64,000 nucleotides of DNA from Planctomycetota bacterium (GCA_021604805.1 BQJR01000001.1:720925-784924), one strand, 5' to 3'; positions 6,151 through 41,764 are shown, numbered from the stretch's first letter. Made by a program: numbers and translations. The notes: generated from the sequence alone by a model not told the origin.

Positions 6151-8495
6151 CGGGTGTCGAAGCGGGCGCACCAGGCGCAGTCGTCGGGTTGCCACAGCGC
6201 GTCGGCATCGAGACCGCCGCCGACCGGCGCCACGTAGCCCAGCGCGGCGAGTTCTTCGAGCTGCGCTGCGTCGTGGTCGAGCGTGTCGCGCCAGGGCAGG
6301 GCGCGTCGCTGCGCCAACCAGTCGAGCACCAGGGCGCGCAGGCGCGCGGCGTCGTCGAAACGTTCGTCCACCAGGTTGTGCGCGGCCTCGGGGTCGGTCG
6401 AGAGGTCGTAGAGTTCGACCTCGTGCGCCACGTGTTGCAGCGCCATGTTCGGCAACGCGCGATCGACCAAACTTAGCACCAGGAACAAGTCCTCGTGCTG
6501 CACCGTGGCCGACGCGCCGAAGGACTCGATCGCGAAGCGCGGCGCGGCGCGGCCCGCGCGCGCGGCCGTCGGCAGCGCACGACCTGGGAACGCTTGCGCC
6601 GTCAGACCGCTCAGGTCGAGCAAGCTGCGACCGAGGTCGAGGTGGCTCACCGGGCTCGCCACGACCTCACCTGCCGACACCCCGGGTCCCGCGAGCACCA
6701 GCGGCACGTGCAGCGTCTTGGGGTAAGCCCCGATGTGATTGAAGTACACGCCGTTCTCGCCGAGCAGCTCGCCGTGATCCGACACGAAGGCGATCAGTGC
6801 GTCGGACAGACGCGGGTGCGCGAGGAAGGCGCCGAGGCGCGCGTCTTGCTCCTCGATCTCGGCGCGATACATCGCGCGCGCCCAGTCGAGTTCACGCAGC
6901 CCGGTCAGCTCGGGAGGCAACAGTTGGGTGGGCACGGGTTCGGGCAACGCGGGGTCGAAGGCGTCGCGCGCGGGATCCCACTGGCGCGCGGCGGCGGTGT
7001 CCGGCGGCGTGTACGGCGTGTGCGCGTCGAACACGTGCAGCCACACGAAGAGCGGGCGGTCGTGCAGCTCGTCGAGCCAAGTGCTGAGGATCGGGAGCGT
7101 TTCTGTGCTCGGACGCTGCGGCGTGTTCGTGGGCCAACTGATGCGATCGAAACCCTGTCCGAGCCCGCTGCCCGGCGGCCCCAGATGACGCGTACTGAGC
7201 GCCGCCACGCAGGTGTAGCCGGCGCTGGCGAAGGACTCGGCGAGCGTGGCGGCGGCGGCGCCCACGCCGTCGTAGTTGCTGAGCACGCCGGTGTCGCGCG
7301 GCGACGTGCCGGTCATCAGCGCCACGTGCGAAGGGTTCGTGTTGTTCACCGAGGTGTAAGCGTCGAGGTAGCGCGTGCCGCGCGCGGCGAGCGCGTCGAG
7401 CACCGGCGTGGAGAGCGACACGCCTTGTTCGGCGTAGCCCACGTGATCCGCGCGGTGCGTGTCACTCGTGATCAACACGGTCACCGGCGGACGCGCGCGC
7501 GGCACCCACACCTGCGGCGCGCTCACCAGGCAAGCCAACGAGGTGCCCGCCGCCGCGTGCGCCTCGCTCTGCAAGGAGAGTTCGAGTCGCTTCGGCGAGC
7601 TCGACGCGGGCAAGGTCAACTCGAGCGGCGTCCAGCGATCCACACTCGGCAGCAGTTCGTGTTCGACGAGCAACTCGCGGCCGCTGTCCGTGAGCAGCTC
7701 CACGCGCAGCACGGCGCCCTGCGGTGCCACGGCCGCCAGCTCGCTCGTCCACGCGACATCGAACTGCACGCGGGCGTCGTGCGGGAGCGCGAGCTCAGTT
7801 TGCAGCGCGCGCCCCTGCAACAGTCCCACGGCCGGTCGGGCTTGATCCCCCACCACCACGAGTTCGGCCTGCGCGGCGGGATCGGGCAGGCGGGCGGCGC
7901 GCGGTTCGTCCACGAGCGCCACGTCGCGCAGGGCGAAGCGTCGGTAACTGCCGAGGAAGCGCAGGCGCAGGGCGTCGAAGGGAGCGGCGGAACGTAGCGC
8001 GGCCGGCAGGTCCACCGACACGTTCACCAGACGATCGAGCGTGTCGATGCTCGGCGCACGCAAGCTGTTCACCACGGCGCCGTCGCGCAGCAGATCGACC
8101 ACCATGCCGAGCCCGCCGCCGCCGTCGGCTGACAACCAGACTTCCACGCGGTCGAAGGTCGCCGGGTCGTAGTGCCCGGCGCGCGTGAGTTGCACCACGC
8201 GTTCGCGACGCCCCGCGCCCACCACGAGCATCGGCCGGCTGCCCTGCGGCAACTCGGGCCCTTCGACCACGATGCGCTTCGAGGGCGACTCGACCTCCCA
8301 CTCGGTGCGCTGCTCGAGCAGATCGAAGCGCTCCACGACGCGCCGTTCGGGCGCGCTCGCGCCGCCCGCCGCCAGGTTCCAGCGGCCACGCTGCAGCTCG
8401 GGTGCGGACGCGCGCTCGCCGCACGCCCACAGGACGCACAGCGCGAAGGCCGCCCACGCGAGCTGCGGCGCGCGGCGCTTCAGCGTGCGCACCAC
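6147..8495 (-). CDS. Sulfatase-fold lipoprotein 2, T-N-P-S-H variant (782 aa)
   Basis: Lipobox LCVLWAC; LITSDTHRADH, NNTNPSHVALMTG, WLHVFDAHTPY, FVSDHGE, LAALGY...CAWCAR. Confidence 0.85.
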   Translation of the reverse strand: MVRTLKRRAPQLAWAAFALCVLWACGERASAPELQRGRWNLAAGGASAPERRVVERFDLLEQRTEWEVESPSKRIVVEGPELPQGSRPMLVVGAGRRERVVQLTRAGHYDPATFDRVEVWLSADGGGGLGMVVDLLRDGAVVNSLRAPSIDTLDRLVNVSVDLPAALRSAAPFDALRLRFLGSYRRFALRDVALVDEPRAARLPDPAAQAELVVVGDQARPAVGLLQGRALQTELALPHDARVQFDVAWTSELAAVAPQGAVLRVELLTDSGRELLVEHELLPSVDRWTPLELTLPASSSPKRLELSLQSEAHAAAGTSLACLVSAPQVWVPRARPPVTVLITSDTHRADHVGYAEQGVSLSTPVLDALAARGTRYLDAYTSVNNTNPSHVALMTGTSPRDTGVLSNYDGVGAAAATLAESFASAGYTCVAALSTRHLGPPGSGLGQGFDRISWPTNTPQRPSTETLPILSTWLDELHDRPLFVWLHVFDAHTPYTPPDTAAARQWDPARDAFDPALPEPVPTQLLPPELTGLRELDWARAMYRAEIEEQDARLGAFLAHPRLSDALIAFVSDHGELLGENGVYFNHIGAYPKTLHVPLVLAGPGVSAGEVVASPVSHLDLGRSLLDLSGLTAQAFPGRALPTAARAGRAAPRFAIESFGASATVQHEDLFLVLSLVDRALPNMALQHVAHEVELYDLSTDPEAAHNLVDERFDDAARLRALVLDWLAQRRALPWRDTLDHDAAQLEELAALGYVAPVGGGLDADALWQPDDCAWCARFDTR

Positions 8496-28790: not shown

Positions 28791-28916
28791 ATGAAGATCA
28801 GAACGCGCAACAGCAACGTGAAGCGCTCGCGCAAGACGGGCTTCCGCACGCGCATGAAGACCGCCAGCGGCCGCAACATCATCCGCCGCCGTCGTGCGCG
28901 GGGTCGCAGCCTCTAA
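28791..28916 (+). CDS. rpmH: 50S ribosomal protein L34 (41 aa; absent from the ORF track)
   Basis: Manual translation [41 protein letters not shown] contains the L34 signature KR.R..GFR.RM.T..GR.I..RRR..GR. Confidence 0.93.
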
Positions 28917-28929
28917 GACCCCTGCTCTC

Positions 28930-30999
28930 ATGAGCACCCCCACGCCGCTGCCCATGACGCGCGCCGAGTTGCGCGCCCGCGGCTGGGATGAAGTCGACGT
29001 CATCCTGATCTCGGGTGACGCGTACGTGGACCACGCGTCCTTCGCCGCGGCTCTGATCGGCCGCGCGCTCGAGTCGGCCGGCTTCCGCGTGGCGATCCTG
29101 GCGCAGCCCGACTGGCGCAGCGTCGACGCGTTCCGCTCGCTGGGGCGCCCGCGCCTGTGTTTCGGCGTCACCGCCGGCAACATGGACTCGATGCTCAACC
29201 ACTACACGGCCAATCGTCGGCCGCGAAGTGACGACGCCTACTCACCCGACGGCGCCGCCGGTCATCGCCCCGACCGCGCCACGAACGTGTACGCGCAGCG
29301 CTGCCGCGAGGCCTTCCGAGGCGTGCCCGTGATCGCGGGTGGCGTGGAAGCCTCGCTGCGCCGCGTGGCGCACTACGACTACTGGTCCGACATGGTGCGC
29401 CCGTCGATCCTGGTGTCGAGCAAGGCCGACCTCGTGGTCTTCGGCATGGGCGAGCGCGCCATCGTGGAGATCTGCAACCGCTTGCGCGACGGGGAATCAC
29501 CGCGTGAGTTGCGCGACATCCGCGGCACCGCCTACCTGCTCGGCAAGAACGACGCGCTGCCCGCCTTCGCCGAGCGCATGCGCGCCGAGGGCACTCCCGA
29601 CCCGAGCGCGAGTTCCGACGACGGCCCCGACGCAGCCACCGTGGAACTCCCCAGCTTCGAGACCGTGCGCGACGACAAGTGCGCCTTCTCCATCGCCACC
29701 CGCTGGATCCACCGCGAGACGAACCCTTTCAACGCACGCCGCCTCGTGCAGCGTCACGGCGAGCGGCTCGTGGTGCAGAACCCACCGAGCCTGCCGCTCG
29801 ACACCGAACAGATGGACGCGCTCTACGACGCCGCCTTCACGCGCGCGCGTCATCCGAGCTACGGCGAGCGACGCATCCCCGCCGAGGACATGATCGCCAA
29901 CAGCGTCACGATCATGCGCGGCTGCTTCGGCGGCTGCAGCTTCTGCTCGATCACCACGCACCAAGGTCGCGTGATCCAGTCGCGCAGCCAGGAGTCGGTG
30001 ATCAAAGAGGTCGACGCCGTGGCCGCCGACGAGCGCTTCTCCGGCGTGGTCAGCGACCTCGGCGGCCCCACGGCGAACATGTACAAGATGCGCTGCACGT
30101 CGCCGGACACCGAGGCCAAGTGCCGGCGCTTGTCCTGCGTGCACCCGAGCATCTGCAAGCACCTCGGCACCGATCACGCGCCCACCATCGACCTGTTGAA
30201 AGCCGCGCGCGAACGCCCTGGCATCCGTCACGTGCACGTGGCGTCCGGCGTGCGCATGGACCTCGCCGAGCGCTCGCCCGAGTACCTGGCCGAGATGGCG
30301 GCGCATCACGTGAGCGGTCATCTCAAGGTGGCGCCGGAACACGTGTCGGAGCGCGTGCTCAAGGTGATGAAGAAGCCCGAGCAGGCCAGCTTCGAGCGCT
30401 TCGCGGAAGCCTTCGGCAAGGCCAGCGAAGCCGCGGGCAAGGAACAGTACCTCGTGCCCTACTTCATCGCCGGACACCCGGGCAGCGATCTCGACGCGAT
30501 GATCGAGTTGGCCGAGTTCCTCAAAGGCGCCGGCTACAAGCCGCGTCAGGTGCAAGACTTCGTGCCCGCGCCGATGGACCTGGCCACGAGCATCTTCCAC
30601 ACCGGCCTCGACCCGCACACGCTGCAGCCCACGCCCGTGGCGCGCAAGCTGCGTGACCGCAAACAGCAGCGCGCGCTCATGCAGTTCTTCAAGCCCGAGA
30701 ACTGGTTCGAGGTGCACGACGCGCTGGTCAAAGCCAAGCGTCGCGACCTGATCGGACACGGTCCGCAATGCCTGATCCGCCCCGAGCCTCCCAAGCAGGC
30801 GCTCGCCGCACGCGCCGCCAAGCGCAGCGGCGAACTCGATCGCTATGTGCACGAGGAGGACGCGCTGGGACCGCGCGCGTCGCGGGGCAAAGCCGGCTCG
30901 CGCGGCAGCTCCGGTCCCCGGGGCCACGCTGGCGCGCACGGCACGACGAGCCCACGCCCCAAGAAGGCTTCGCGCCGACGGGGTGGGCCACGGCGCTAG
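28930..30999 (+). CDS. ygiQ: YgiQ family (UPF0313) radical SAM protein (689 aa)
   Basis: [37 protein letters not shown], CxxxCxxC in [22 protein letters not shown] and PYFIAGHPG. Confidence 0.93.
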
Positions 31000-31091
31000 A
31001 CGCTCCCCCGCGTCTCCGACTAGTCTGTGAAGTCGACCCGCAGATCGCCGTCACCCACACCGTGGCGCGCAACCTTTCCGGAGCACGCACG

Positions 31092-33404
31092 ATGTCGAGC
31101 ATCTCCTCGCGCCGCCGCTTGGCGTGCGTGCTCGCGCTCACCGCGCTCGCCTCGCTGGGCGGACTCGGCATCGCTTGCGGCGACGACGCACCCGCCGAGC
31201 CCGACACGACGGCGCGCCTCGCCGTGCTGCAGCGCGACCTGAGCCTGGAACGTGATCCCAGCGCCCCCGCCCCGCAGCCCTTCTCCTATCACTGGGACGC
31301 CGCCAGCCTGCGCACCAACTGGCTCCCCGGCGAAGGCACCCTGCGCAAGCTCCAGACGCAGGAGCTGCAAGTGCGCGGCACGCCGAACGCCGAGCTCGTG
31401 AGCCCGGCCAGCGCCACGCTCGACGCCGAGATCCATCACCACCTCGTGGTGCATCTGCGCAGTGCGCGCGCGCTCGACGTCACGGTGTACTGGCGTGCGC
31501 GCGAAGCGCAGCCCTTTGCCGAGAGCCGTCGCACCGTGGCCGAAACACTGCCCGCGAGCGAGGCCACGCAGATCTGGTCGCTGCCGCTGGCGAACCTGCG
31601 CGGCTGGAAGCACCAGCGCGAAGGCGGACCGGGTGCCGGCTGGACCAAGGGCGCCGACGCCGCCGAGGGCCTGCAAGCCCTGAGGCTCGTGTTCGTCGAC
31701 GCGGAGAACCCCGGCAGCACCCCGGCCGACGTGTTCATCGAGTCGATCGCGCTCACGTCGAGCTTCGATCGCGAATCCGACCAGGAACTGAGCCTCGCGC
31801 GCATGGGTCGCGAGCACGTGTTCCAGCGCGGCGTCGCGTTGTCGGTGCCCGACGCCGCCAGCCTCAGCTTGATGCCCGGGCCGCAGGACCGGCTGCGCTT
31901 CTCACTCGCCGTGGCGGGCGCGCGCGAGCCCGTCACCCTGAGTTTGCGCGACGAGGCCGGCAAGCTCGCGCCGCAGTCGTGGGAGTTGCAGCCGCGTGCC
32001 CCGTGGCTGAACGTGGCGCTCGAGTTGGGCGCGCTGGCCGGCGAGAACGCACGACTGCACTTCGAGACGAGCGGCGCGCAGAGCGGCGGCGCAGTGATGA
32101 TCGGTCAACTGATGCACCTCGCGCCGCCGACCACGCCACGACCGAACGTGGTGCTCTACGTGGAAGACACCTTGCGCGCGGACCGGCTGCCGAGCTACGG
32201 CTACGCGCTGCCCACCGCGCCGCACTTGAGTCGCATGGCCGACGCGGGTGTGGTCTTCGAGGACCTCTTCGCGGCCTCGAACTGGACGCGACCGTCGACG
32301 ACCTCCTTGCTGACCGCGCTCGACCCCGTCACGCACGGCAATCACGACGACTACGACCGCATCGCCGAGAGCCTCGTGACCTTGCCCGAGTTGCTGGCCG
32401 AGGCCGGCTACGTGACCGCGTCGCTCGTGACGAACTACCACGCCGGCGCGTGGTCCGGGCTCGACCAAGGTTTCGACGTGGTGCACGAGCCGCCGGCCGG
32501 CGGCGCGTCCACGCTGAACTCCACGCTCACCTCCGGTGTCGTCGGCGACGCGCTCGAAGCGCTGCTCGAGGAACACCAGGGCGAGCAACTGTTCGTGTAC
32601 GCGCACAGCCTCGATCCGCACCAGCCCTACACGCCCACCGCCGAAGACCTGCGCGTCTTCCACGATCCGCCCGAAGGCGCCGCCGGCACGCACAAGCAGG
32701 CCAGCCCTTCGGTGCGCTACGACGCCGAGATCCTGTTCAACGACCACCAACTCGCGCGCCTCGACGCGCAACTCGAGAGCCACGGGCTGCTCGAGGACAC
32801 GCTCTTCGTGTTCACCTCCGACCACGGCGAGGGTTTCATGGAGCACGGTCAGCGTTCACACCGCACCGACATGTTCCAAGAGGAGTTGCACGTGCCGTGG
32901 ATCCTGCGTTGGCCGGCCCAGCTCCGCGCGGGTCAACGCGTGAGCGCGCCCGCAGGTCACGTGGACATCGCCCCCACGCTCGCCGGCTTGCTCGGGCTGG
33001 ACGCGCCGTCGAACTGGCGCGGCCGGGATCTCTCGCAGCTTGCGCGCAGCCCGAACGCGCGCGTCGATGCCACGCCGCTGATGAGCTTCACCACCTACGG
33101 CACGCGCCCCGAGGGTGGCCACAAGCAAGCGCTCGCCGTGCGCCAGGGCGCCTACAAACTCACCGCCTGGGTGAATGAGCGCGACGAGATCCTGCCGCGC
33201 GCGCTCTACCGCCTCGACCTCGATCCGGGTGAGCACACGAATCTGCTCGAAGCGTCCGAGCACGCCGAGCAGCGTGATCGCATGCTCAGCTGGGCCCGCG
33301 ACGACCTCGCCCGCGGACGTGCCAGCGTGGAAGCGCGTCCGGCCAATCACATGGACCCGGCCATGCGCGCCTGGCTGCAGGAGATGGGTTACCTAGGCAA
33401 ATGA
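31092..33404 (+). CDS. Sulfatase-fold lipoprotein 5, T-R-P-S-T variant (770 aa)
   Basis: Lipobox GLGIAC; VVLYVEDTLRADRL, ASNWTRPSTTSLLT, YAHSLDPHQPY, FTSDHGE and C-terminal LQEMGY. It has no CxxC tail. Confidence 0.85.
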   Translation: MSSISSRRRLACVLALTALASLGGLGIACGDDAPAEPDTTARLAVLQRDLSLERDPSAPAPQPFSYHWDAASLRTNWLPGEGTLRKLQTQELQVRGTPNAELVSPASATLDAEIHHHLVVHLRSARALDVTVYWRAREAQPFAESRRTVAETLPASEATQIWSLPLANLRGWKHQREGGPGAGWTKGADAAEGLQALRLVFVDAENPGSTPADVFIESIALTSSFDRESDQELSLARMGREHVFQRGVALSVPDAASLSLMPGPQDRLRFSLAVAGAREPVTLSLRDEAGKLAPQSWELQPRAPWLNVALELGALAGENARLHFETSGAQSGGAVMIGQLMHLAPPTTPRPNVVLYVEDTLRADRLPSYGYALPTAPHLSRMADAGVVFEDLFAASNWTRPSTTSLLTALDPVTHGNHDDYDRIAESLVTLPELLAEAGYVTASLVTNYHAGAWSGLDQGFDVVHEPPAGGASTLNSTLTSGVVGDALEALLEEHQGEQLFVYAHSLDPHQPYTPTAEDLRVFHDPPEGAAGTHKQASPSVRYDAEILFNDHQLARLDAQLESHGLLEDTLFVFTSDHGEGFMEHGQRSHRTDMFQEELHVPWILRWPAQLRAGQRVSAPAGHVDIAPTLAGLLGLDAPSNWRGRDLSQLARSPNARVDATPLMSFTTYGTRPEGGHKQALAVRQGAYKLTAWVNERDEILPRALYRLDLDPGEHTNLLEASEHAEQRDRMLSWARDDLARGRASVEARPANHMDPAMRAWLQEMGYLGK

Positions 33405-33468
33405 ACCGCGGGCAAGTGAGCCGCGGGCACCAGTAAGCCGCGCCCTCTTACACGCGGCCTTCGCGCAG

Positions 33469-34221
33469 TCAGTTGCGGGCGTGGGCCTCGCGCGTCTTGG
33501 CGTCTTTCAGGAAGGCGTACCAGGAACCCAGCGCGCAGACGACGAGGCCGCGCCAACCGTCGAGCACACCGCGCTGCAGCAAGTACATGCGCGCGAAGCG
33601 GAACGGCGGCCCGAGCAGCAGCTTGCCGAAACCCACGCGCTTGCCGGCGGCCACGCGCCGCTCAGCGATCGTGGTCGTGTAGGCGTTGATCTTGCTGAGG
33701 TGCTCGGCCAGGTCCACATAGGGTTCGTGCAGCAGGCGTCCGGCGAGGCGACCGGTGCTGCCGGTGACTTCCATGTGGTCGTGGGGTTCCACGCCACCCG
33801 AACGCCCGGCGCCGCGACGCAACAGGCGCAGGCGCCATTCGGGGCTCCAGCCGCAGTGGTCGATCCAGCCGCCGAGGTAGCGGCTGCGGCGGTTGAGTTC
33901 GAAGCCGGCGTGGCCTTGGTCGGCGCCGGCGAGCACGCGGGCCAGCGCGGCGGCCAACTCGCCGTCGAGCCATTCGTCGGCGTCGAGGCAGAGCACCCAG
34001 TCTTGGGTCGCGTGGTCGAGCGCGATCTGGCGCTGCCCCACGAAGCCCGTCCAAGGGTGCTCGACGATCTCGGCGCCAGCCTTGCGGGCCAGTTCCAAGG
34101 TGGCGTCGGTGCTGCCCGAGTCGATCACCAGCAGCTGGTCGGCGAGCTCCGCCACCGAGGCGAGGCAGCGCGGCAGGTCGCGCTCCTCGTTGCAGGTCAA
34201 GATCGTGACGCTGAGTCCCAT
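33469..34221 (-). CDS. Glycosyltransferase family 2 (WaaE/KdtX-like beta-glucosyltransferase, 250 aa)
   Basis: LSVTILTCNEE, VIDSGSTDAT, DWVLCLDADE and LLH...HLSKINAYTT. Confidence 0.92.
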   Translation of the reverse strand: MGLSVTILTCNEERDLPRCLASVAELADQLLVIDSGSTDATLELARKAGAEIVEHPWTGFVGQRQIALDHATQDWVLCLDADEWLDGELAAALARVLAGADQGHAGFELNRRSRYLGGWIDHCGWSPEWRLRLLRRGAGRSGGVEPHDHMEVTGSTGRLAGRLLHEPYVDLAEHLSKINAYTTTIAERRVAAGKRVGFGKLLLGPPFRFARMYLLQRGVLDGWRGLVVCALGSWYAFLKDAKTREAHARN

Positions 34222-34289
34222 CGGCGCATGATCCAGCGCGCCGGGTCGCAGATGCAAGCGCTGCGCGTCGGGAGGCGGCCGCATGGTCT

Positions 34290-34317
34290 TTGCCGCCAGA
34301 CGACTCGACGGTAGGAT
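34290..34317 (+). promoter_or_regulatory. Putative promoter of the GlmL-like operon, TTGCCG-N16-TAGGAT
   Basis: Lies in the divergent gap between GT2 and the operon; SD GGGAG at 34338-34342 precedes ATG 34349. Confidence 0.45.
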
Positions 34318-34348
34318 GGGCGATCTGCGTGCCCCCCGGGAGAATCCG

Positions 34349-35038
34349 ATGAGCGATGCCGGCCTCGAGGCCCTTGCGGCCCCTGAGTCGGTGTCTTCAG
34401 CCGGAGGGTCGGCGTCTCTAGCCGGAGGGTCGGTGTCTCCAGCCGGAGGCGGAGGCCGTCGGAACTCGACGCTCCCCGCCGCCCCGAGTCGCGCCCAGAA
34501 CGAGGCCGCCCAGGCTCCTGCGGCCGCCGAACAAACCCCCAGTCCGTCGGGCCACGCCAGCTCAGTCGAGAACGAGCCCGTTCAGGAGCTGCGCTGGACC
34601 GTCCACCCCGCCGCCCAGTCCCCGGCGCGCGCCGCCTTGGTCGGCGGCCTGATCCTCGGGGTGAGCCTGCTCGCCGCGCAACTCTCAGCCGCACCGCAGT
34701 TCGGCGTCCTCGCGCTGCTCTTCCTGGCGTTCAGCCTGCGCGCCTTCTTCCTTCCGCGGCACTATGCGTTCGACGCCGCCGGCGCCCGCGAGTCCGGCCC
34801 CCTGGGCGCCACCCGCCGCGTGGCCTGGCCCGACGTGAAACAGGTGCGCGCCGTGCGCTTCGGCGTGTGGCTGGGCGAGCGTCACAACAGCTCGCGCATG
34901 CTGCCGGCCCACGGGCTCTTCGTGCGCACGAGCGGCAATCGCAGCGAGGTGCTGGCCGCAGCGCAACGGGCGGCACCGGAGGCCAGCGCCCCGGCCGCGC
35001 CCCAGGACTCCGCGAACCGCCAGGACCCCGCGAACTGA
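34349..35038 (+). CDS. Operon gene 1: two-TM membrane protein with a PH-like cytoplasmic C-terminal domain (229 aa)
   Basis: Low-complexity N-terminus, then LRWTVHPA, two TM helices and LP..YAFD..G......VAW.DV..VR, a pattern typical of bacterial PH-like domains. The stop overlaps the next ATG (TGATG). Confidence 0.65.
   Translation: MSDAGLEALAAPESVSSAGGSASLAGGSVSPAGGGGRRNSTLPAAPSRAQNEAAQAPAAAEQTPSPSGHASSVENEPVQELRWTVHPAAQSPARAALVGGLILGVSLLAAQLSAAPQFGVLALLFLAFSLRAFFLPRHYAFDAAGARESGPLGATRRVAWPDVKQVRAVRFGVWLGERHNSSRMLPAHGLFVRTSGNRSEVLAAAQRAAPEASAPAAPQDSANRQDPAN
34387..34449 (+). repeat. In-frame 21-bp tandem repeat, 3 copies
   Basis: gtcggtgtcttcagccggagg / gtcggcgtctctagccggagg / gtcggtgtctccagccggagg, encoding SVSSAGG-SASLAGG-SVSPAGG. 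Confidence 0.85.
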
Positions 35039-35466
35039 TGGGCAAGCCGGCCGTCACCGAAAGCCTGGAGCCGCACGAGCAAGAGCTGCTCGACGAGGTC
35101 GCCGAGGGCGTGGTGCGACGCCGGCTCTCCACGCCCGCGATGATGTTCCTGGAGATGAGCACGCCGCTCAACATGCTCGGCAGCTCCACGCTGCACATGG
35201 CCTCGCCGTTGTGGCGCGCGGTCGTGCCCGTGTCGCGCATCGACCAAGTGGCGAAGCTGCTCGAGAAGCGCATCGCCATCCCCGCGCTGATCCAAGCCAT
35301 CGACGACGCGGAACACGAGCGTCGCCGGGCAGCGAAGTCCAAGTCGGACGCGCCGCCGACCAACGCCGCACCGCTGACCCCCACCGCGCTGGCGACCGGG
35401 GCCACCCCACCGACCGATCCCGATTCACCGTCCGCCCCTCACGCGCCTGACGAGACGAGCTCTTGA
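35038..35466 (+). CDS. Operon gene 2: small helical conserved hypothetical protein (142 aa)
   Basis: Core LLDEVAEGVVRRRLSTPAMMFLEMSTPLNMLGS...LLEKR. Coupled on both sides (TGATG, TTGA). Confidence 0.7.
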   Translation: MGKPAVTESLEPHEQELLDEVAEGVVRRRLSTPAMMFLEMSTPLNMLGSSTLHMASPLWRAVVPVSRIDQVAKLLEKRIAIPALIQAIDDAEHERRRAAKSKSDAPPTNAAPLTPTALATGATPPTDPDSPSAPHAPDETSS

Positions 35467-37271
35467 GCGAAACGATCCGATCCATCCTCGCCACCGATTG
35501 TGGAAGCACCACGACCAAGGCGATCCTCATCGAGCTCACCAGCGACGGCTATCGCCTCAAGGTGCGCGGCGAAGCACCCACCACCGTGGAGAAGCCTTTC
35601 GACGACGTGACCGTGGGCGTGATCAACGCCGTCACCGAAGTGCAGGAGCTCGCGGGCCGCACGATCGTCGGCGAGGACGGCCGCATCATCACGCCGCAGA
35701 CCGACGAAGCCGGCGTGGACCTCTACCTCTCCACGAGCAGCGCGGGCGGCGGCTTGCAGATGCTCGTGGCCGGCGTGGTGCGCAGCATGACGGCCGAGTC
35801 GGCCGAACGCGCGGCGCTCGGCGCGGGCGCCATCGTGATGGACGTGTTGTGCAGCAACGACCAGCGTCAGCCGCACGAGCAGATCACGCGCATCCGACAT
35901 CTGCGGCCCGACATGATCCTGCTCAGCGGTGGCGTCGACGGCGGCACCACGAGTCACGTGGCCGAGCTCGCCGAGTTGATCTCCGCCGCCGACCCGAAGC
36001 CGCGTCTCGGCGCGGGCTACGAGCTGCCGGTGGTGTTCGCCGGCAACGTGGAAGCGCGCGGCGCCGTCAACGACGCGCTCGAGGAGAAGACGGCGCTGTC
36101 CGTCGTGGACAACCTGCGCCCCACGCTCGACGAAGAGAACCTCGACCCCGCGCGCGACCAGATCCACGACCTGTTCATGGAACACGTCATGGCGCAGGCG
36201 CCGGGTTACGACAAGCTCAAGAGCTGGACGTCGGCGCCCGTGATGCCCACGCCCGGCGCCGTGGGCGCGATCATCACCACCGTGGCCGAGCAGCGGAAGT
36301 TGCAAGTGATCGGCGTGGACATCGGCGGCGCGACCACCGACGTGTTCTCGGTCTTCCAGCACAAGTTCAACCGCACCGTGTCCGCCAACCTCGGCATGAG
36401 TTACTCGATCTCGAACGTGATGGCCACGGCCGGGCTCGACAACGTGCTGCGCTGGGTGCCCTTCGACATCGACGAGAGCGAGCTGCGCAACCGCATCAAG
36501 AACAAGATGGTGCGCCCCACCACCATCCCGAGCCTGGTGCGCGACCTCCAAGTGGAACAAGCGCTGGCGCGCGAGGCGCTGCGTCTCTCACTGATCCAAC
36601 ACAAGGAGTTCGCCACGGAGCTCAAGGGCGTGCGCAAGTCGCGCGACATCTCCGAGGCCTTCGACCAGAGCGGCTCGGGCAACACACTCGTGAACATGAT
36701 GACGTGTGACTTGGTGGTCGGCAGCGGCGGCGTGCTGAGTCACGCGCCACGCCGCGTGCAGTCGGCGCTCATGCTCATCGACAGTTTCGAGCCCATGGGC
36801 GTGACCAAGCTGGCCGTGGACTCGATCTTCATGATGCCGCAGCTGGGCGTGCTCTCCACGGTGCACGAAGCCGCGGCCACCGAAGTGTTCGAGCGCGACT
36901 GCTTGGTTCCGCTGGGCACCTGCATCGCGCCCGTCGGCAAGACCAAGGGCGGCAAGCCGCTCGCGAAGATCACACTCGAGTTGCCCGACGGCAAGGTCGA
37001 GCGCACGCTCGCCGTGGGCGACCTCGACCTGATCAAGTTGCCCACCGGCAGCAGCGCGCGCTGCACGATCGAACCCGCCAAGGGTGTGGACGTGGGCGCG
37101 GGACCGGGGCAAGTGCTCAACACCGAGATCGAAGGCGGCGAGGCGGGCATCTTCCTCGACGGCCGCGGTCGCCCCGTGCAAGTGCCTGCCGACGCGCAGC
37201 AACGCGTCGCCGCCATCGAAACCTGGATCGAGAACCTCGATCTCTACCCGCGTGAGGGAGCCCACTCGTGA
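35463..37271 (+). CDS. Operon gene 3: glutamate mutase L (GlmL/MutL)-like ASKHA-fold ATPase (602 aa)
   Basis: Phosphate-1 ILATDCGSTTTKA, SSAGGGL, LLSGGVDGG, VMPTPGAV, phosphate-2 VIGVDIGGATTDVFS, NLGMSYS and GSGGVLSHAP match the GlmL/MutL pattern. Confidence 0.85.
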   Translation: MSETIRSILATDCGSTTTKAILIELTSDGYRLKVRGEAPTTVEKPFDDVTVGVINAVTEVQELAGRTIVGEDGRIITPQTDEAGVDLYLSTSSAGGGLQMLVAGVVRSMTAESAERAALGAGAIVMDVLCSNDQRQPHEQITRIRHLRPDMILLSGGVDGGTTSHVAELAELISAADPKPRLGAGYELPVVFAGNVEARGAVNDALEEKTALSVVDNLRPTLDEENLDPARDQIHDLFMEHVMAQAPGYDKLKSWTSAPVMPTPGAVGAIITTVAEQRKLQVIGVDIGGATTDVFSVFQHKFNRTVSANLGMSYSISNVMATAGLDNVLRWVPFDIDESELRNRIKNKMVRPTTIPSLVRDLQVEQALAREALRLSLIQHKEFATELKGVRKSRDISEAFDQSGSGNTLVNMMTCDLVVGSGGVLSHAPRRVQSALMLIDSFEPMGVTKLAVDSIFMMPQLGVLSTVHEAAATEVFERDCLVPLGTCIAPVGKTKGGKPLAKITLELPDGKVERTLAVGDLDLIKLPTGSSARCTIEPAKGVDVGAGPGQVLNTEIEGGEAGIFLDGRGRPVQVPADAQQRVAAIETWIENLDLYPREGAHS

Positions 37272-38392
37272 GTCATGCCTACACCCCAGGCCTGAAGGTC
37301 TCCGACGCCGCCGAGTTCGTGCGCGCGCGCAGCCTGCCGATCCCCGGCGAGGTGCTCGTGAAGCAGGGCGACAGCGTGGAGCCCGACACTGTCGTGGCGC
37401 GCGCCTTGTTGCCCGGCAACGTGGTCACGGCGAACTTTGCGCGTCAACTCGGCGTGGCCGCCGCCGACCTCGGCGAGCTGCTGCTCGTGAAGCCCGGCGA
37501 GACCGTGAAGGAAGGTCAGCCGATCGCGCAGAGCAAGGGCATCTTCGGCATGTTCAAGCAGGCCGTGAACGCGCCCACCACCGGCGAGTTCGAATCGGTG
37601 TCGGCCGTGTCCGGTCAGGCGATCTTCCGCGAAGCGCCGATCCCCGTGGAAGTGCGCGCTTACGTGGGCGGCAAGGTGACCAGCGTCACCGACACGTTCG
37701 GGGTCGACGTGACGGCGCGCGGCATCATGGTGCAAGGCATCTTCGGCATCGGCCCCGAGGTGGCCGGGCCGATCACCTTGGCCGGTCCCGACCCGGCCAA
37801 GCGCCTCGAGCCCGCCGACATCAAGGCCGAACACAAGGGCAGCGTGCTCGTGGGCGGCTCCTTCGCGAGCTTGGCCACGTTGCGCGCGTGCATCGAGAAG
37901 GGTGTCACGGCGCTGGTCGTCGGGGGCATCGACGCGGCCGACCTCAAAGAACTGCTCGGCTTCGACCTGGGCGTGGCGATCACGGGCAACGAAACCGTGG
38001 GGCTCACGCTGGTCGTCACCGAGGGCTTCGGCGAGCTGGCCATGGCCGGCAAGACGCACCGACTGCTGAGCAACGCCGTGGGCCAAGTGGCGTCGGTGAG
38101 CGGCGCCACACAGATCCGCGCGGGCGTGATGCGCCCCGAGGTGCTCGTGCCGCGCGAGATCGAAGCGATCGAACAGACCGAAGTCGACACGGGCTTCATG
38201 CACGAAGGCAGCGTGGTGCGCATCATCCGCGACCCACATTTCGGCTCGCTGGGTAAAGTCACGGCGCTACCGCCCGAGCCGGCAGCCTTGGAGACCGAGG
38301 CCAAGGTGCGTATTCTCACGGTCGCCCTGGCTGATGGCACTCCGGTCACGCTCCCGCGGGCCAACGTCGAACTCGTGGACGAGAGCCTGTGA
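37268..38392 (+). CDS. Operon gene 4: soluble protein with barrel-sandwich hybrid (RnfC/NqrA-N or biotinyl-lipoyl-like) repeats and a C-terminal KOW/SH3-like domain (374 aa)
   Basis: VLVKQGDSVEPDTVVA and LLVKPGETVKEGQPIA...VNAPTTG; C-terminal GSVVRIIRDPHFGSLGKVT...VTLPRANVELV. Confidence 0.7.
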   Translation: MSHAYTPGLKVSDAAEFVRARSLPIPGEVLVKQGDSVEPDTVVARALLPGNVVTANFARQLGVAAADLGELLLVKPGETVKEGQPIAQSKGIFGMFKQAVNAPTTGEFESVSAVSGQAIFREAPIPVEVRAYVGGKVTSVTDTFGVDVTARGIMVQGIFGIGPEVAGPITLAGPDPAKRLEPADIKAEHKGSVLVGGSFASLATLRACIEKGVTALVVGGIDAADLKELLGFDLGVAITGNETVGLTLVVTEGFGELAMAGKTHRLLSNAVGQVASVSGATQIRAGVMRPEVLVPREIEAIEQTEVDTGFMHEGSVVRIIRDPHFGSLGKVTALPPEPAALETEAKVRILTVALADGTPVTLPRANVELVDESL

Positions 38393-39330
38393 TCCAACCA
38401 CTGCTCGCGCTGCAAGACGCGGTGACTCCCTGGTGGGTCGACCTCAACCTCTGGCTCAGCGGCATGGGTCGCGGCACCGATGCCGACGGCTCAGTGCTCG
38501 CGCCCGGCATCGGCACTCCCGGTGGCCTCGACGATTGGATCGACACGGGCAAGCTGCCCACGCTCATCGCGATCCTGATCTACGCCTTCTTGATGTTGCG
38601 CAGCCAGGCCAAGGCCAAGGCCGGCGCCGAGATCCCGATCCGTCGCATCGCCGGCCTGGATGCGCTCGACGAAGCCATCGGGCGCTCCACCGAGATGGGC
38701 CGCCCGGTGCTCTACGTGCCCGGCATCGACGAGATCAAAGAGATCCAAACGATCTACTCGATGATGATCCTGCGGCACGTGGCGCGCAAAACCGCTGAGT
38801 ACGGCACGCCGCTCATCGTGCCCGTGAAAGACTCGGTCGTGATGACCTTCGCCGAGGAAGCCTGCAAGCAAGGTTGCCTCGACGCCGGCCGCCCCGACGC
38901 GTTCATCGCCGACAACGTGCGCTACCTGTCGAACGAGCAGTTCGCCTACTGCGCGGGCGTGGCCGGCATCATGAACCGCGAGAAGCCGGCCGCGAACATC
39001 ATGCTCGGCATGTTCTTCGCCGAGTCGCTGATCCTCGCAGAGACCGGCTACGCGAGCGGCGCGATCCAGGTGGCGGGCACAGCCAAGCAGCACCAGCTGC
39101 CCTTCTTCGTGGCCGCCTGCGACTACACGATCATCGGCGAGGAGTACTTCGCCGTCACCGCGTACCTCACGCGTGAGCCGGGCTTGCTCGGCACGATCCG
39201 CGCCGCCGACATCATCAAGGTGATCGTGATCATCCTGTTCGTGCTCGGCGTGATCCTGGCCACGGCCACGGGCAACGGCACCGAAACCTCACCTTCTCTC
39301 TTCGACGTCTACGGACGTCTCTTCGGCTGA
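38389..39330 (+). CDS. Operon gene 5: DUF6754-like membrane protein (313 aa)
   Basis: TM helix, then IRRIAGLDALDEAIGRSTEMGRPVLYVPG...FAESLILAETG...QLPFFVAACDYTIIGEEYFA..AYL, then a C-terminal TM. Matches my recollection of DUF6754. Confidence 0.75.
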   Translation: MIQPLLALQDAVTPWWVDLNLWLSGMGRGTDADGSVLAPGIGTPGGLDDWIDTGKLPTLIAILIYAFLMLRSQAKAKAGAEIPIRRIAGLDALDEAIGRSTEMGRPVLYVPGIDEIKEIQTIYSMMILRHVARKTAEYGTPLIVPVKDSVVMTFAEEACKQGCLDAGRPDAFIADNVRYLSNEQFAYCAGVAGIMNREKPAANIMLGMFFAESLILAETGYASGAIQVAGTAKQHQLPFFVAACDYTIIGEEYFAVTAYLTREPGLLGTIRAADIIKVIVIILFVLGVILATATGNGTETSPSLFDVYGRLFG

Positions 39331-39337
39331 GTTCACG

Positions 39338-39985
39338 ATGAAACGCGAGATCCCCATCGCCCTCACCGTGATCTGCGGTCTGCTGATCACCTGGGCCTTC
39401 TTCAGCCCGTCGGAGCTGAGCCAAGCGGTCAACGTGGAGCTCACGGCCTGGGCGTCGATCTTCTTCGCCGTGGCCTTCCTGCTCGGCATCGGCAACTTGG
39501 TGCGCATCAGCCTGAAGCAGATCAGTGCGCGCCATCCCGACTGGCCCTACAAGGCGCTGTTGATGCTGATGCTCTTCGGCTACCTCAGCATCGGCCTGCT
39601 CGAGATCCACGGCGTGATCGAGAGCGAGTACGGCGACAAGGCTTACCAAGACTGGATCTACGAGCGGATCTTCAAACCGCTGCAGTCCACCATGTTCGCG
39701 CTGCTCGCTTTCTACATCGCGTCGGCAGCCTTCCGCGCCTTCCGCGCGCGCTCGATGGAAGCCACGCTGCTGCTCACTGCTGGCGCGCTCGTGATGCTCG
39801 GCCAGGTGCCGCTGCCGATCGCGCCGCCTGAAGTCGGCGCCTTCTTCGCGCGCGTGCAGGGCTTCCTGATGGCCTACGTGAACGCCGCGGGCCAGAGCGC
39901 CATCATCATGGGTGCCGCGCTCGGCACCCTCGCCACGGGCCTGCGCATCGTGCTCGGTCTCGAACGCAGCTACCTTTCGGAGTAA
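39338..39985 (+). CDS. Operon gene 6: integral membrane protein (about 5-6 TM, 215 aa)
   Basis: Hydrophobic throughout; conserved-looking PLQSTMFALLAFYIASAAFRAFRARS.EA.LL and C-terminal LRIVLGLER. Confidence 0.75.
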   Translation: MKREIPIALTVICGLLITWAFFSPSELSQAVNVELTAWASIFFAVAFLLGIGNLVRISLKQISARHPDWPYKALLMLMLFGYLSIGLLEIHGVIESEYGDKAYQDWIYERIFKPLQSTMFALLAFYIASAAFRAFRARSMEATLLLTAGALVMLGQVPLPIAPPEVGAFFARVQGFLMAYVNAAGQSAIIMGAALGTLATGLRIVLGLERSYLSE

Positions 39986-39989
39986 GGCC

Positions 39990-40865
39990 GTGGCGCAAGC
40001 AACAGATCTCGATCGACGCTGGATCTTCCTGGCCATGGGTGTGCTCGTGGTCGGGTTGTTCGCGTCCGGCGTGTCCTCACCGATGCCGGTGAGCAGGTAC
40101 GTCAGCGATTACTACGACACCATCGAGGCGCTGCCCGAGGGTTCCGTGGTGATGCTCTCGGCCGACTTCGACCCGGCCTCCGCCGCCGAACTCTTCCCCA
40201 CCTACCAAGCCACGATCCATCACCTGATGCGACGCGGCATCCGCGTGGTCAACGTGGCCACCTGGCCGGCGGCGCCGCCCTACACGCGCAAGGCCTTCGA
40301 CGCCATCGCCCCCGCCTACGGCCGCGAGTACGGCACCGACTGGGTCGAGCTGGGCTTCAAGCCGGGCGACGACGTGGCCATGGCTCAGATCGGCCAGTCG
40401 ATCCGCACGACCTACCCGCGCGACGACCGCGACGGCACCGCCATCGACCAGCTCCCGCTGATGTCCGAGGTGGGCGACTCCTTCGAGGGCATCGAGCTGC
40501 TGCTCACGATGAGCGCCGGCTACCCCGGCATCCTCGAGTGGATCGCCCAAGCCGGCGGCCGCTACGACATGACGATGCTGGCGGCCACCACCGCCGTGCA
40601 GACGCCCGACCTCTTCGCGTACTACCCCACGCAACTCGCGGGCTTCTGCGGCGGCGCCACGGGGGCCACCCAGTACCTGCAGCTCGTGGCCAACTCAGCG
40701 GGCACGGCCACGATCATGGACCAAGCGCCGCTCGACGAGCTGCTCGCCGTGAAGGAGAAGAACCAGAAGCGCATGGTGATCCAGATGTGGGGTCACCTGT
40801 TGATCATCGCGCTGATCGTCCTCGGTAACGTGCTCTACTTCCGCGGTCGAAAGGCGGTGGCCTGA
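39990..40865 (+). CDS. Operon gene 7: TM-soluble alpha/beta domain-TM protein, probable DUF6754 paralog (291 aa)
   Basis: GTG 39990; DRRWIFLAM TM, central YDTIEALPEGSVVMLSADFDP...YGTDWVELGFKPG and C-terminal TM HLLIIALIVLGNVLYF. Confidence 0.72.
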   Translation: MAQATDLDRRWIFLAMGVLVVGLFASGVSSPMPVSRYVSDYYDTIEALPEGSVVMLSADFDPASAAELFPTYQATIHHLMRRGIRVVNVATWPAAPPYTRKAFDAIAPAYGREYGTDWVELGFKPGDDVAMAQIGQSIRTTYPRDDRDGTAIDQLPLMSEVGDSFEGIELLLTMSAGYPGILEWIAQAGGRYDMTMLAATTAVQTPDLFAYYPTQLAGFCGGATGATQYLQLVANSAGTATIMDQAPLDELLAVKEKNQKRMVIQMWGHLLIIALIVLGNVLYFRGRKAVA

Positions 40866-41764
40866 TGTCCTCGATGCTCGCGCTGCAAGACGCAGCCACA
40901 CCCTTCGTCAGCCTGGACCCCAATGGCCCGGTGGACATCATCGGCGCGTGGCTGATGTGCTTCCTCACGCTCTCGGTGTTCAGCTTCCTGTACAAGGACA
41001 ACCCCTTCTACAAGGTCGCTGAGCACGTGTTCGTGGGTGTGGGCACCGCGTACTTCGCGCTGCAGTACTACAAGGAAGGCATCCTCGAGCCCGTCCGCGA
41101 CCACATGTACGACATCGCCGAGGTGATGGGCGAACCGGGTGCGAGCTTCTCGCTCGGCGGCTACGACGCCGACCCCACGATCGCCTTCATCCTGCGCGCG
41201 GTCGCAGCGATCTTCGGCCTCATGTTGCTCACACGCCTGTTCTCGCCGAACTCCTGGGCGCCGCGCTGGCCGCTGGCCGTGATGGTCGGTGTGTACTCCG
41301 CGCTGAAGCTCACCGGCGAGACGCAGAGCAAGCTCGTGCTGCAGACCAAGGGTTTGATGAAGCCGCTCGTGCCCGAGAACGTGGGCGAGGTGGGCTGGTT
41401 CCCGGACGGCGTGGCCCTCGAGTCCACGCCGCTGTTCCTCACCATCGCGAACGCCATCGTGGTCATCGGCGTGATCTGCGCGTTGAGCCACTTCCTGTTC
41501 ACCTGGAAGCGCGGCCGCACGCTGGGCGCCGTGTCGCGCGTGGGCATCATCGTGCTGATGATCACCTTCGGCTCGATGTTCGGCTTCACGGTGCTGGGAC
41601 GCATCGCGCTGCTCATCGAACGCGTCAACGAGCTCTTCGACCTCTCGGAACCGGACTACGCCTTCGGCACTCCGTTCCTGTCGCCGCCGGTGATCCTCAC
41701 CGTGCTGATTGCTGGCACGCTCACGCTCTTCGCCTTGCAACGCAAGGAAGGCACCGACAGCTGA
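40865..41764 (+). CDS. Operon gene 8: integral membrane protein (about 6-7 TM, 299 aa)
   Basis: TGATG coupling; LTL.VFSFLYKDNPFYKVAEHVFVG...MITFGSMFGFTVLGRIALLIER. Confidence 0.75.
   Translation: MSSMLALQDAATPFVSLDPNGPVDIIGAWLMCFLTLSVFSFLYKDNPFYKVAEHVFVGVGTAYFALQYYKEGILEPVRDHMYDIAEVMGEPGASFSLGGYDADPTIAFILRAVAAIFGLMLLTRLFSPNSWAPRWPLAVMVGVYSALKLTGETQSKLVLQTKGLMKPLVPENVGEVGWFPDGVALESTPLFLTIANAIVVIGVICALSHFLFTWKRGRTLGAVSRVGIIVLMITFGSMFGFTVLGRIALLIERVNELFDLSEPDYAFGTPFLSPPVILTVLIAGTLTLFALQRKEGTDS

Follow-up and report, generated by a model that had tools for sequence, protein, structure and literature searches.

The g4 locus

A stretch of 64,000 nt from a Planctomycetota bacterium (GCA_021604805.1, BQJR01000001.1:720925-784924), referred to in its whole length as the window, contains a gene, g4, that lies between the gene of a GlmL/MutL-family ATPase (g3) and a row of genes encoding membrane proteins (g5 to g8), the first of which is a DUF6754 protein. 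Two further genes, g1 and g2, precede g3, and all features are listed in Table 1. An earlier note, made from the sequence alone, had described the g4 product as a soluble mosaic of barrel-sandwich hybrid repeats, an alpha/beta core of possibly swivelling type and a KOW-like C-terminus, and had proposed that it is a swinging or coupling adaptor between the ATPase and the membrane proteins. The observation is confirmed and the interpretation is partly supported. g4 is co-inherited with g3, translationally coupled to it and sometimes fused to it, and it co-occurs with the unit centered on DUF6754.

g4 is a real gene with a 374-aa product. Its GTG start overlaps the stop of g3 by 4 nt (GTGA), and its own TGA stop likewise overlaps the GTG start of g5 by 4 nt (GTGA). 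All sequence segments quoted in the earlier note are present in the translated product, and a Kyte-Doolittle hydropathy scan showed no hydrophobic segment, which indicates a soluble protein. The window has a G+C content of ~69%, and long shadow open reading frames (ORFs) are found on both strands because of it. g4 is single-copy in its own 4.47-Mb genome.

Table 1. Genes of the g1-g8 module in the window and domains of the g4 product.
Feature	Coordinates	Strand	Basis
g1, membrane protein, weak bacterial PH match	start uncertain, 34283-34433 (probably 34349 or later), to 35038	+	
g2, 142-aa soluble protein	35038-35466	+	ATG start, TGATG junction with g1
g3, 602-aa GlmL/MutL-family ASKHA ATPase	35463-37271	+	PF13941, E=6.6e-126
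g4, soluble three-domain protein	37268-38392	+	>8000 homologs; AlphaFold2 model with mean predicted local distance difference test (pLDDT) 94.3 and predicted template-modeling score (pTM) 0.87; no transmembrane segment
g4 conserved N-terminal tail M-x-H/F-A-Y-T-P-G-L, residues 1-10, predicted flexible	37268-37297	+	block pLDDT 67
g4 barrel-sandwich hybrid (biotinyl/lipoyl-like), residues ~11-124	37298-37639	+	Foldseek, Pfam and PDB profile matches
g4 middle domain, residues ~125-296	37640-38155	+	DSSP, Foldseek
g4 KOW/SH3-like barrel, residues ~314-370	38207-38377	+	Pfam KOW, Spt5 profile match, Foldseek
g5, DUF6754 protein	38389-39330	+	PF20539, E=1.3e-106
g6, polytopic membrane protein	39338-39985	+	hydropathy; syntenic in 35/80 loci; no Pfam family
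g7, membrane protein: transmembrane segment, ~230-aa domain, second transmembrane segment	39990-40865	+	hydropathy; syntenic in 34/80 loci
g8, polytopic membrane protein	40865-41764	+	hydropathy; syntenic in 34/80 loci; no Pfam family

Nearly all of the database homologs of g4 are 370-380 aa long. The closest share 66-78% identity with it and are each exactly 374 aa, and those from other phyla share ~50% identity and have 371-378 aa. In a library clustered at 50% identity, 2169 cluster representatives match g4 at E ≤ 1e-3. Judged from these alignments, with about half of the residues identical between phyla and the length fixed, the constraint on g4 is very strong. No member among the homologs is characterized, and neither a whole-protein Pfam family nor a solved full-length relative was found. 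Literature searches that covered DUF6754/PF20539 and the PF13941/GlmL ATPase family returned no relevant publication. Neither the protein nor the module can be assigned to a family or system that has been described.

Domains of the g4 protein

The AlphaFold2 model of the whole protein was built from an alignment of 118 sequences. Foldseek searches with this model gave matches to single domains only and no full-length relative in the PDB; when g4, g3, g5 and g7 were compared with the PDB by sequence and by profile, only KOW and carrier-domain matches were obtained, all of them for g4. In the alignment, 47 positions are at least 90% conserved and most of these are Gly. The non-Gly positions include T239, E242, T251, E252, T281, Q282, R284, R289, E291, Q156, E164, R318, R321, R364, N366 and E368, and 27 of the 47 positions are in the middle domain. 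Sequence varies in the two linkers (residues 172-192 and 297-313), as would be expected of modules that fold separately. In the N-terminal tail, 22 sequences agree without exception at Y5, T6, P7, G8 and L9. There is no column of the 118-sequence alignment in which Lys, His, Cys, Asp or Tyr reaches 80%. The lack of a conserved Lys, His or Cys excludes a biotin/lipoate carrier, a phosphohistidine relay and an iron-sulfur (Fe-S) or Cys-metal site.

Two N-terminal segments, VLVKQGDSVEPDTVVA (residues 29-44) and LLVKPGETVKEGQPIA (residues 71-86, with VNAPTTG following at 100-106), had been interpreted as repeats of a barrel-sandwich or RnfC/NqrA-like fold. The fold itself is well supported. Foldseek aligned the region with biotin carboxyl carrier domains at prob 0.95-1.0, with a template-modeling score (TM) of 0.52 normalized to the target 2ejf_C, and profile matches in the PDB include 1dcz, 1o78, 1z6h and 2k7v. 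Residues 72-118 of g4 score 25.2 bits with Pfam RnfC_N (cut-off 25.6) and 21.5 bits with Biotin_lipoyl (cut-off 22.1), and relatives pass the cut-offs, P0215 with RnfC_N at 37 bits and P0201 with Biotin_lipoyl_2 at 34.3 bits. The repeats, however, do not look like two domains. A helical hairpin is inserted at residues 57-71 (helices 57-61 and 65-71 in DSSP of the model), and entire carrier domains of 69-77 residues align across 88-102 columns of g4. Thus the two segments look like the halves of a single domain that is split by the hairpin.

The absence of the carrier motifs AMKM and DK had been pointed out before and holds for the family, as a search for conserved Lys and His found none in the 118 sequences. 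Of these sequences, 46% have Lys at K90 and 39% at K97, and the hairpin tip, at the position where carriers have their lysine, is a conserved hydrophobic [LF]-F-G-[LF]-[FL]. A swinging arm with a prosthetic group is ruled out by the lack of a conserved Lys, His or Cys. Several g4 homologs, including P0024, P0034, P0041 and P0061, have the public (JGI) name “biotin carboxyl carrier protein”, which is a misannotation because there is no conserved lysine; P0285 is also among the database entries with misleading labels. An identity as RnfC/NqrA was rejected as well: TIGR01945 gives 14.2 bits against a cut-off of 245.95, the downstream domains are missing and no Cys is conserved.

The middle domain has three layers and consists of a five-stranded antiparallel sheet (residues 125-171) and a beta-alpha-beta-alpha-beta-alpha-beta unit (residues 193-296), as assigned by DSSP to the models. 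It includes the segments VLVGG, ALVVGGID and LTLVVTEGFG, and also the most conserved motifs of the family, QGIFGxGxE, GVAxTGxE, TEGFG and GATQIRAGVxRPE. Residues 120-304 were modeled separately from an alignment of 81 orthologs translated from fetched loci (pLDDT 90, pTM 0.87). The top PDB match of this model is Streptomyces RraAS2 (5x15_C; E=3e-3, prob 1.0, TM 0.44 over 170 columns), followed by PA domains of bacterial aminopeptidases, the apical domains of the transferrin receptor and GCPII, and the TRiC apical domain. The RraA-like, PA and apical matches have 145-170 aligned columns at prob 0.9-1.0. RraA-like, PA and GroEL-apical-like domains are superfamilies of SCOP fold c.8, the “swivelling beta/beta/alpha domain”, to which the swivel domain of the reactivases and the phosphohistidine domain belong as well. 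Since the best PDB matches are all c.8, the earlier suggestion of a swivelling domain was right at the level of the fold. A specific resemblance to dehydratase reactivases was not supported: no reactivase chain (1NBW, 2D0O) is among the 50 listed Foldseek matches of the middle domain.

Sequence-based comparisons did not place the middle domain in a known family. Across the 81 middle domains no Pfam family recurred at E values up to 1; the matches were scattered noise, with PF00391 weakly present in 2 of 81. In hhalign comparisons with profiles made from relatives' genomes, the middle domain gave 0.2% with the RraA-like and 0.05% with the PEP-utilizer swivel profile. It should be noted that the control, a comparison of these two genuine c.8 profiles with each other, also failed (8%). 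Thus hhalign was unable to bridge the c.8 superfamilies, and its negative result for the middle domain is weak. The PEP-utilizer phosphohistidine swivel (PF00391; G-G-x-T-S-H) was rejected on the hhalign value together with the lack of a conserved His. An RraA-like/HMG-CHA aldolase (PF03737) was rejected at the sequence level, with no Pfam match and with a likeness that is confined to the fold.

The C-terminal segment GSVVRIIRDPHFGSLGKV...PRANVELV is found at the end of g4, and its assignment to a KOW/SH3 barrel proved correct. Foldseek superposed the barrel on the Spt5 KOW domain 8p4e_Z with TMt 0.80 and a root-mean-square deviation of 1.4 A over 58 columns, with NusG, uL24 and eS4 as other matches, and a profile search of the PDB found Spt5 KOW at E=0.0014. 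With Pfam KOW, g4 scores 16.2 bits (cut-off 22.3) and the relative P0215 is above the cut-off at 23.1 bits. Conserved in the barrel are R318, R321, F325, G326, P335, P363, R364, N366 and E368. The best Foldseek match of the whole model is Thermotoga maritima NusG (2xhc, E=2.9e-5), but the whole-chain TM is only 0.14. A Pfam scan found no NGN domain in g4, and the N-terminus is the barrel-sandwich hybrid instead.

Association of g4 with g3

The counts of gene order given here and below refer to the 80 best g4 loci, out of at least 560 species-level genomes in the collection that have a g4 relative. g3 is directly upstream of g4 in 49 of the 80 loci. It has weak Hydantoinase_A matches (23.1 bits), and it stays under the NCBIfam cut-offs, with 217 vs 475 bits for GlmL proper and 211 vs 600 bits for Or-4. 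A PDB search found no close relative of g3 among solved structures.

Two clusters of natural fusion proteins were found, P0137 (995 aa) and P0205 (1003 aa), in which the MutL part is N-terminal and a full g4 is C-terminal. The two share 43% identity and their linkers are unrelated; the Y/F-x-P-G-L motif of the g4 tail is retained after the linker in both. P0205, which comes from Candidatus Ozemobacteraceae, bears the annotation “glutamate mutase L”. The 995-aa fusion was found in eight different sequences, which stem from several assemblies and lie on contigs as long as 97 kb, so that it cannot be an artefact of assembly.

A gap of ~0.7-0.9 kb lies between g3 and g4 in loci of Zixibacteria and Ignavibacteria-like type (L042, and also L029, L066, L067, L071 and L078). 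The gap of L042 contains a 156-aa ORF at 6108-6578.

Distribution and co-occurrence with DUF6754

Relatives of g4 are spread over phyla that are mostly uncultured, among them Planctomycetota, Eisenbacteria, Fermentibacteria, WOR-3, Poribacteria, Zixibacteria, Stahlbacteria, Cloacimonadota, Calditrichota, Sumerlaeota and Riflebacteria. In ~35 of the 80 loci g5 to g8 follow g4 in unchanged order. To compare occurrence, 151 evenly sampled Planctomycetota genomes were searched; g4 was found in 39 and DUF6754 in 41. Both were present in 38 genomes, g4 alone in 1, DUF6754 alone in 3 and neither in 109 (Fisher p = 5e-31), and the four genomes that have just one of the two genes are fragmented assemblies (320-660 contigs). 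DUF6754 was absent from all 14 well-known control genomes, in which MutL matches never rose above the family cut-off.

g4 is solitary among unrelated genes in Poribacteria, WOR-3, Stahlbacteria, Sumerlaeota and Calditrichota. Of the genomes with a solitary g4 that were searched, 8 of 8 nevertheless encode DUF6754 and 7 of 8 a MutL gene of 609-637 aa. Thus the system survives without the operon, with MutL and DUF6754 elsewhere in the genome. In the complete 6.49-Mb chromosome of G001 the three genes lie apart, at ~1.87, 2.01 and 3.35 Mb. In locus L012, g4 (7001-8134) sits 4 nt behind the gene of an Rce1-like CAAX protease.

A divergent paralogous g4 subfamily (P0170, P0198, P0201, P0215, P0218, P0254 and P0268) has members of 448-475 aa, with an N-terminal extension of ~78 aa that, in the members scanned, contains an extra hybrid-motif element of the barrel-sandwich or EIIA-like kind. 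Second, weaker g4-like matches in some Planctomycetota genomes (G022, G035, G067, G086, G111 and G157) span only residues ~55-303. The paralogs and the partial second matches suggest that the module has a second version. In several genomes there are two or three DUF6754 genes (G023, G059, G110, G003 and G007), and the copies are 3-4 kb apart on one contig in G023, G059, G100 and G110.

Membrane unit and flanking genes

In g5 the hydropathy scan detected a C-terminal transmembrane segment. An N-terminal hydrophobic stretch at ~56-70 was seen by eye and is under the threshold of the scan, and a soluble domain of ~200 aa lies between the two stretches. g6 has a near-invariant motif, M-F-x-L-L-A-F-x-I-A-S-A-A-F-R-A-F-R-A-R-S, that is retained across phyla in a protein otherwise 40% identical and is regarded as a candidate site of function in the membrane unit. 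The start of g7 is likely GTG at 39990, which is 4 nt past the g6 stop and after GGAG, rather than the start at 39912 given by the ORF lister; the ortholog in locus L118 has 285 aa. None of g6, g7 and g8 could be assigned to a family; Pfam scans of 30 g6 and 25 g8 orthologs at E values up to 1 gave scattered noise only, and no paralogy of g6 and g8 was detected (hhalign 0.3%). Scans with PADLOC and PHROG gave no match for g4 or the membrane genes, and for g3 a weak actin-fold ParM-like match only; an anti-phage defense or phage system was rejected on these negative scans.

By tblastn, ORFs similar to g2 were detected upstream of g3 in 24 of the 80 loci; clustering of ORFs raised the number to 35. 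In L118, a relative with 78% identity, the module is preceded, in the region 125-2946, by a YgiQ-type radical SAM gene (Radical_SAM_N, Radical_SAM and DUF3362) and by a divergently oriented family-2 glycosyltransferase gene. The window has ORFs of similar size (701 aa on the + strand, 271 aa on the - strand) at the corresponding place, 28894-34284, and a sulfatase-fold gene (30768-33404) appears inserted between them.

A complete glycine-cleavage operon, gcvT-gcvH-gcvPA-gcvPB, immediately precedes g1-g8 in ~21 of the 80 loci, most of them from Fermentibacteria and Eisenbacteria. Examples are L009 (63-4305; Pfam-confirmed), L006, L007, L013, L014, L016, L018, L023, L026, L030, L037, L038, L040, L041, L044, L057, L076 and L081. 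GcvH is a lipoyl barrel-sandwich protein. The linkage is limited to Fermentibacteria, Eisenbacteria and unlabeled relatives and may for that reason be inherited synteny; it could be either that or a functional hint. In the loci of Fermentibacteria the module is followed by a TonB-dependent receptor gene, as it is in a few loci that are unlabeled or from Eisenbacteria.

Possible roles of g4

On balance it is probable that g4 encodes an obligate cytoplasmic partner subunit of the long GlmL/MutL-type ASKHA ATPase, and that the pair is coupled to the membrane unit. Within this interpretation a physical association of g4 with g3 is very likely, and the natural fusions suggest one g3-g4 complex. A specifically mechanical swivel mechanism is doubtful by comparison. 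As proposed, g3 and g4 would form a single complex in which binding or hydrolysis of ATP in the ASKHA cleft of g3 would reposition the g4 middle domain, the bearer of nearly all invariant Gly, Thr, Glu and Arg motifs. The hydrophobic-tipped hairpin of the barrel-sandwich domain and the KOW barrel would serve for docking to other proteins. They would be directed at the domain of g5, and possibly at that of g7, both of which are read as cytoplasmic by the positive-inside rule. Nucleotide turnover would thereby be coupled to work of the membrane unit, either transport or the assembly or resetting of a complex. A bolder version, tentative and rather unlikely as a whole, is that g3-g4 is the motor of a new class of primary-active membrane machine, one powered by an ASKHA ATPase rather than by P-loop, P-type or rotary ATPases, in which g4 would be the transmission. 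Its swivel-type domain would turn the nucleotide-dependent closing of the cleft into motion, and with the hydrophobic hairpin and the KOW barrel it would hold on to the cytoplasmic domains of DUF6754 in membrane units of four proteins that are interchangeable.

Several results weigh against a coupling subunit. The c.8-type matches of the middle domain are at the fold level only (TM 0.3-0.44), no reactivase is among them, and the hhalign comparisons described above did not link the domain to either c.8 profile. The operon is not obligatory, since g4 adjoins neither partner in many lineages. Beyond PF20539 in g5, no relatives of the membrane unit were found in Pfam, PDB, PADLOC or PHROG. The invariant polar residues T239, E242, T251, E252, T281, Q282, R284, R289 and E291 look as much like an active or ligand site as like a hinge. 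They are the starting point for the main rival explanation, itself unlikely, in which g4 is a catalytic or substrate-binding subunit, g3-g4 is an ATP-dependent small-molecule enzyme with these Thr, Glu and Arg residues in its active site, and the membrane unit imports the substrate or exports the product; the ASKHA hydantoinase, oxoprolinase and acetone-carboxylase systems, or a kinase, would be comparable. The concentration of conserved positions in the middle domain, these nine among them, is in its favor, and the best structural match of that domain is RraA-like, a family that includes metal-dependent aldolases and oxaloacetate decarboxylases. The Hydantoinase_A matches of g3 also fit, as does the cross-phylum identity of g4, which is typical of core enzymes, and the glycine-cleavage operon upstream of the module. 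However, neither the RraA-like profile comparison nor Pfam supports an enzyme, with an enzyme family found in none of the 81 members, and conserved His, Cys, Asp and Lys, the residues commonest in metal or covalent catalysis, are lacking. The consistent metabolic neighbor is found only within two related candidate phyla.

Improbable, and more so than an enzyme, is that g3 is a true reactivase or chaperone, with g4 as its client or as an exchangeable “beta-like” subunit that is released or swapped into the membrane complex upon ATP hydrolysis, for repair or assembly. For the lineage of GlmL, EutA and DdrA, a role as reactivating chaperones that swap subunits has been established or proposed (PMC7674605). 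DUF6754 units outnumber g4 in some genomes (two to one in G023, G059 and G110, and three DUF6754 matches in G003), and one soluble factor shared by several membrane units would fit these copy numbers. A release-and-swap cycle is argued against by the stable covalent g3-g4 fusions, and neither a cofactor-dependent enzyme nor a cofactor-binding motif was found in the module by Pfam and NCBIfam scans and in the alignment. There is very little probability that g4 binds nucleic acids or acts as a transcription or translation factor through its KOW barrel (NusG/Spt5/uL24-like). The barrel matches Spt5, NusG, uL24 and eS4, and NusG leads the whole-model search, but g4 has no NGN domain, its likeness to 2xhc does not extend over the chain, and both its context and its co-occurrence are with the ATPase and membrane proteins rather than with the transcription or translation apparatus. 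The possibility that g4 is a biotinyl/lipoyl swinging-arm carrier is effectively refuted at the family level. The barrel-sandwich fold does match biotin carboxyl carrier domains, and the JGI names of several homologs follow this; however, at neither K90 nor K97, nor in any other column, does Lys reach 80%, the tip is the hydrophobic L-F-G-L-F, and the module has no biotin or lipoate ligase and no carboxylase.

If a partner subunit of the ATPase is the correct interpretation, and the pair drives the membrane unit, a new coupling of ATP to membrane work would be represented. If g4 is part of an enzyme instead, a core function of many candidate phyla is now invisible to annotation. The current labels, “glutamate mutase L” for the g3-g4 fusion and “biotin carboxyl carrier protein” for g4 homologs, are misleading in any case. 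The confident model, the natural fusions and the few invariant residues make the question directly testable.

Comparison with known systems

The nearest relatives of g3 are GlmL/MutL, the glutamate mutase accessory protein, and the Or-4 homolog of the ornithine pathway, with which it shares a family (PF13941, NF040745, NF040744). Unlike canonical GlmL it is ~140 aa longer, has no mutase genes nearby and is always accompanied by g4. No g4 is known from canonical GlmL systems.

The domains of g4 can be compared with several protein families. With the biotin carboxyl carrier and lipoyl domains, and apparently also with the N-terminal domains of RnfC and NqrA, it shares the fold of residues ~11-124 and the motifs G-D-x-V-x-x-G and A-P-x-x-G. 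In contrast to the carriers, it lacks the carrier lysine (E-A/V-M-K-M or D-K-A) and has the helical insertion, and the downstream domains of RnfC/NqrA (NuoF-like Rossmann, SLBB and Fe-S) were not found in g4 by a Pfam scan. The KOW barrel is common to g4 and NusG/Spt5, and T. maritima NusG (2xhc), in which domain II is an insertion, likewise joins a hybrid-motif element to KOW. g4 differs in having no NGN domain, in the order of its domains and in its membrane and ATPase context. RraA-like and PA/apical domains are structurally the most similar to the middle domain, yet their conserved motifs are unrelated to those of g4 and no profile-profile homology was found.

The closest parallel to the proposed g3-g4 pair is the alpha subunit of the reactivases DdrA and GdrA (2D0O, 1NBW). 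This subunit has an ATPase domain and a swivelling domain, and ATP hydrolysis moves the latter and changes the binding of partners (PMC7674605). There the ASKHA ATPase and the swivel are in one chain, whereas here the ATPase and the swivel-type domain are in the adjacent genes g3 and g4, which are fused in some species. g4 itself has no ATPase domain, and its swivel-type domain is flanked by the barrel-sandwich hybrid and the KOW barrel. Neither a B12 enzyme nor a DdrB-like subunit is encoded near the module, and the proposed partner is a membrane complex. By analogy, the logic of g3 and g4 may be that of a B12-dehydratase reactivase, with the parts distributed over two genes and with a membrane complex rather than a B12 enzyme as the target.

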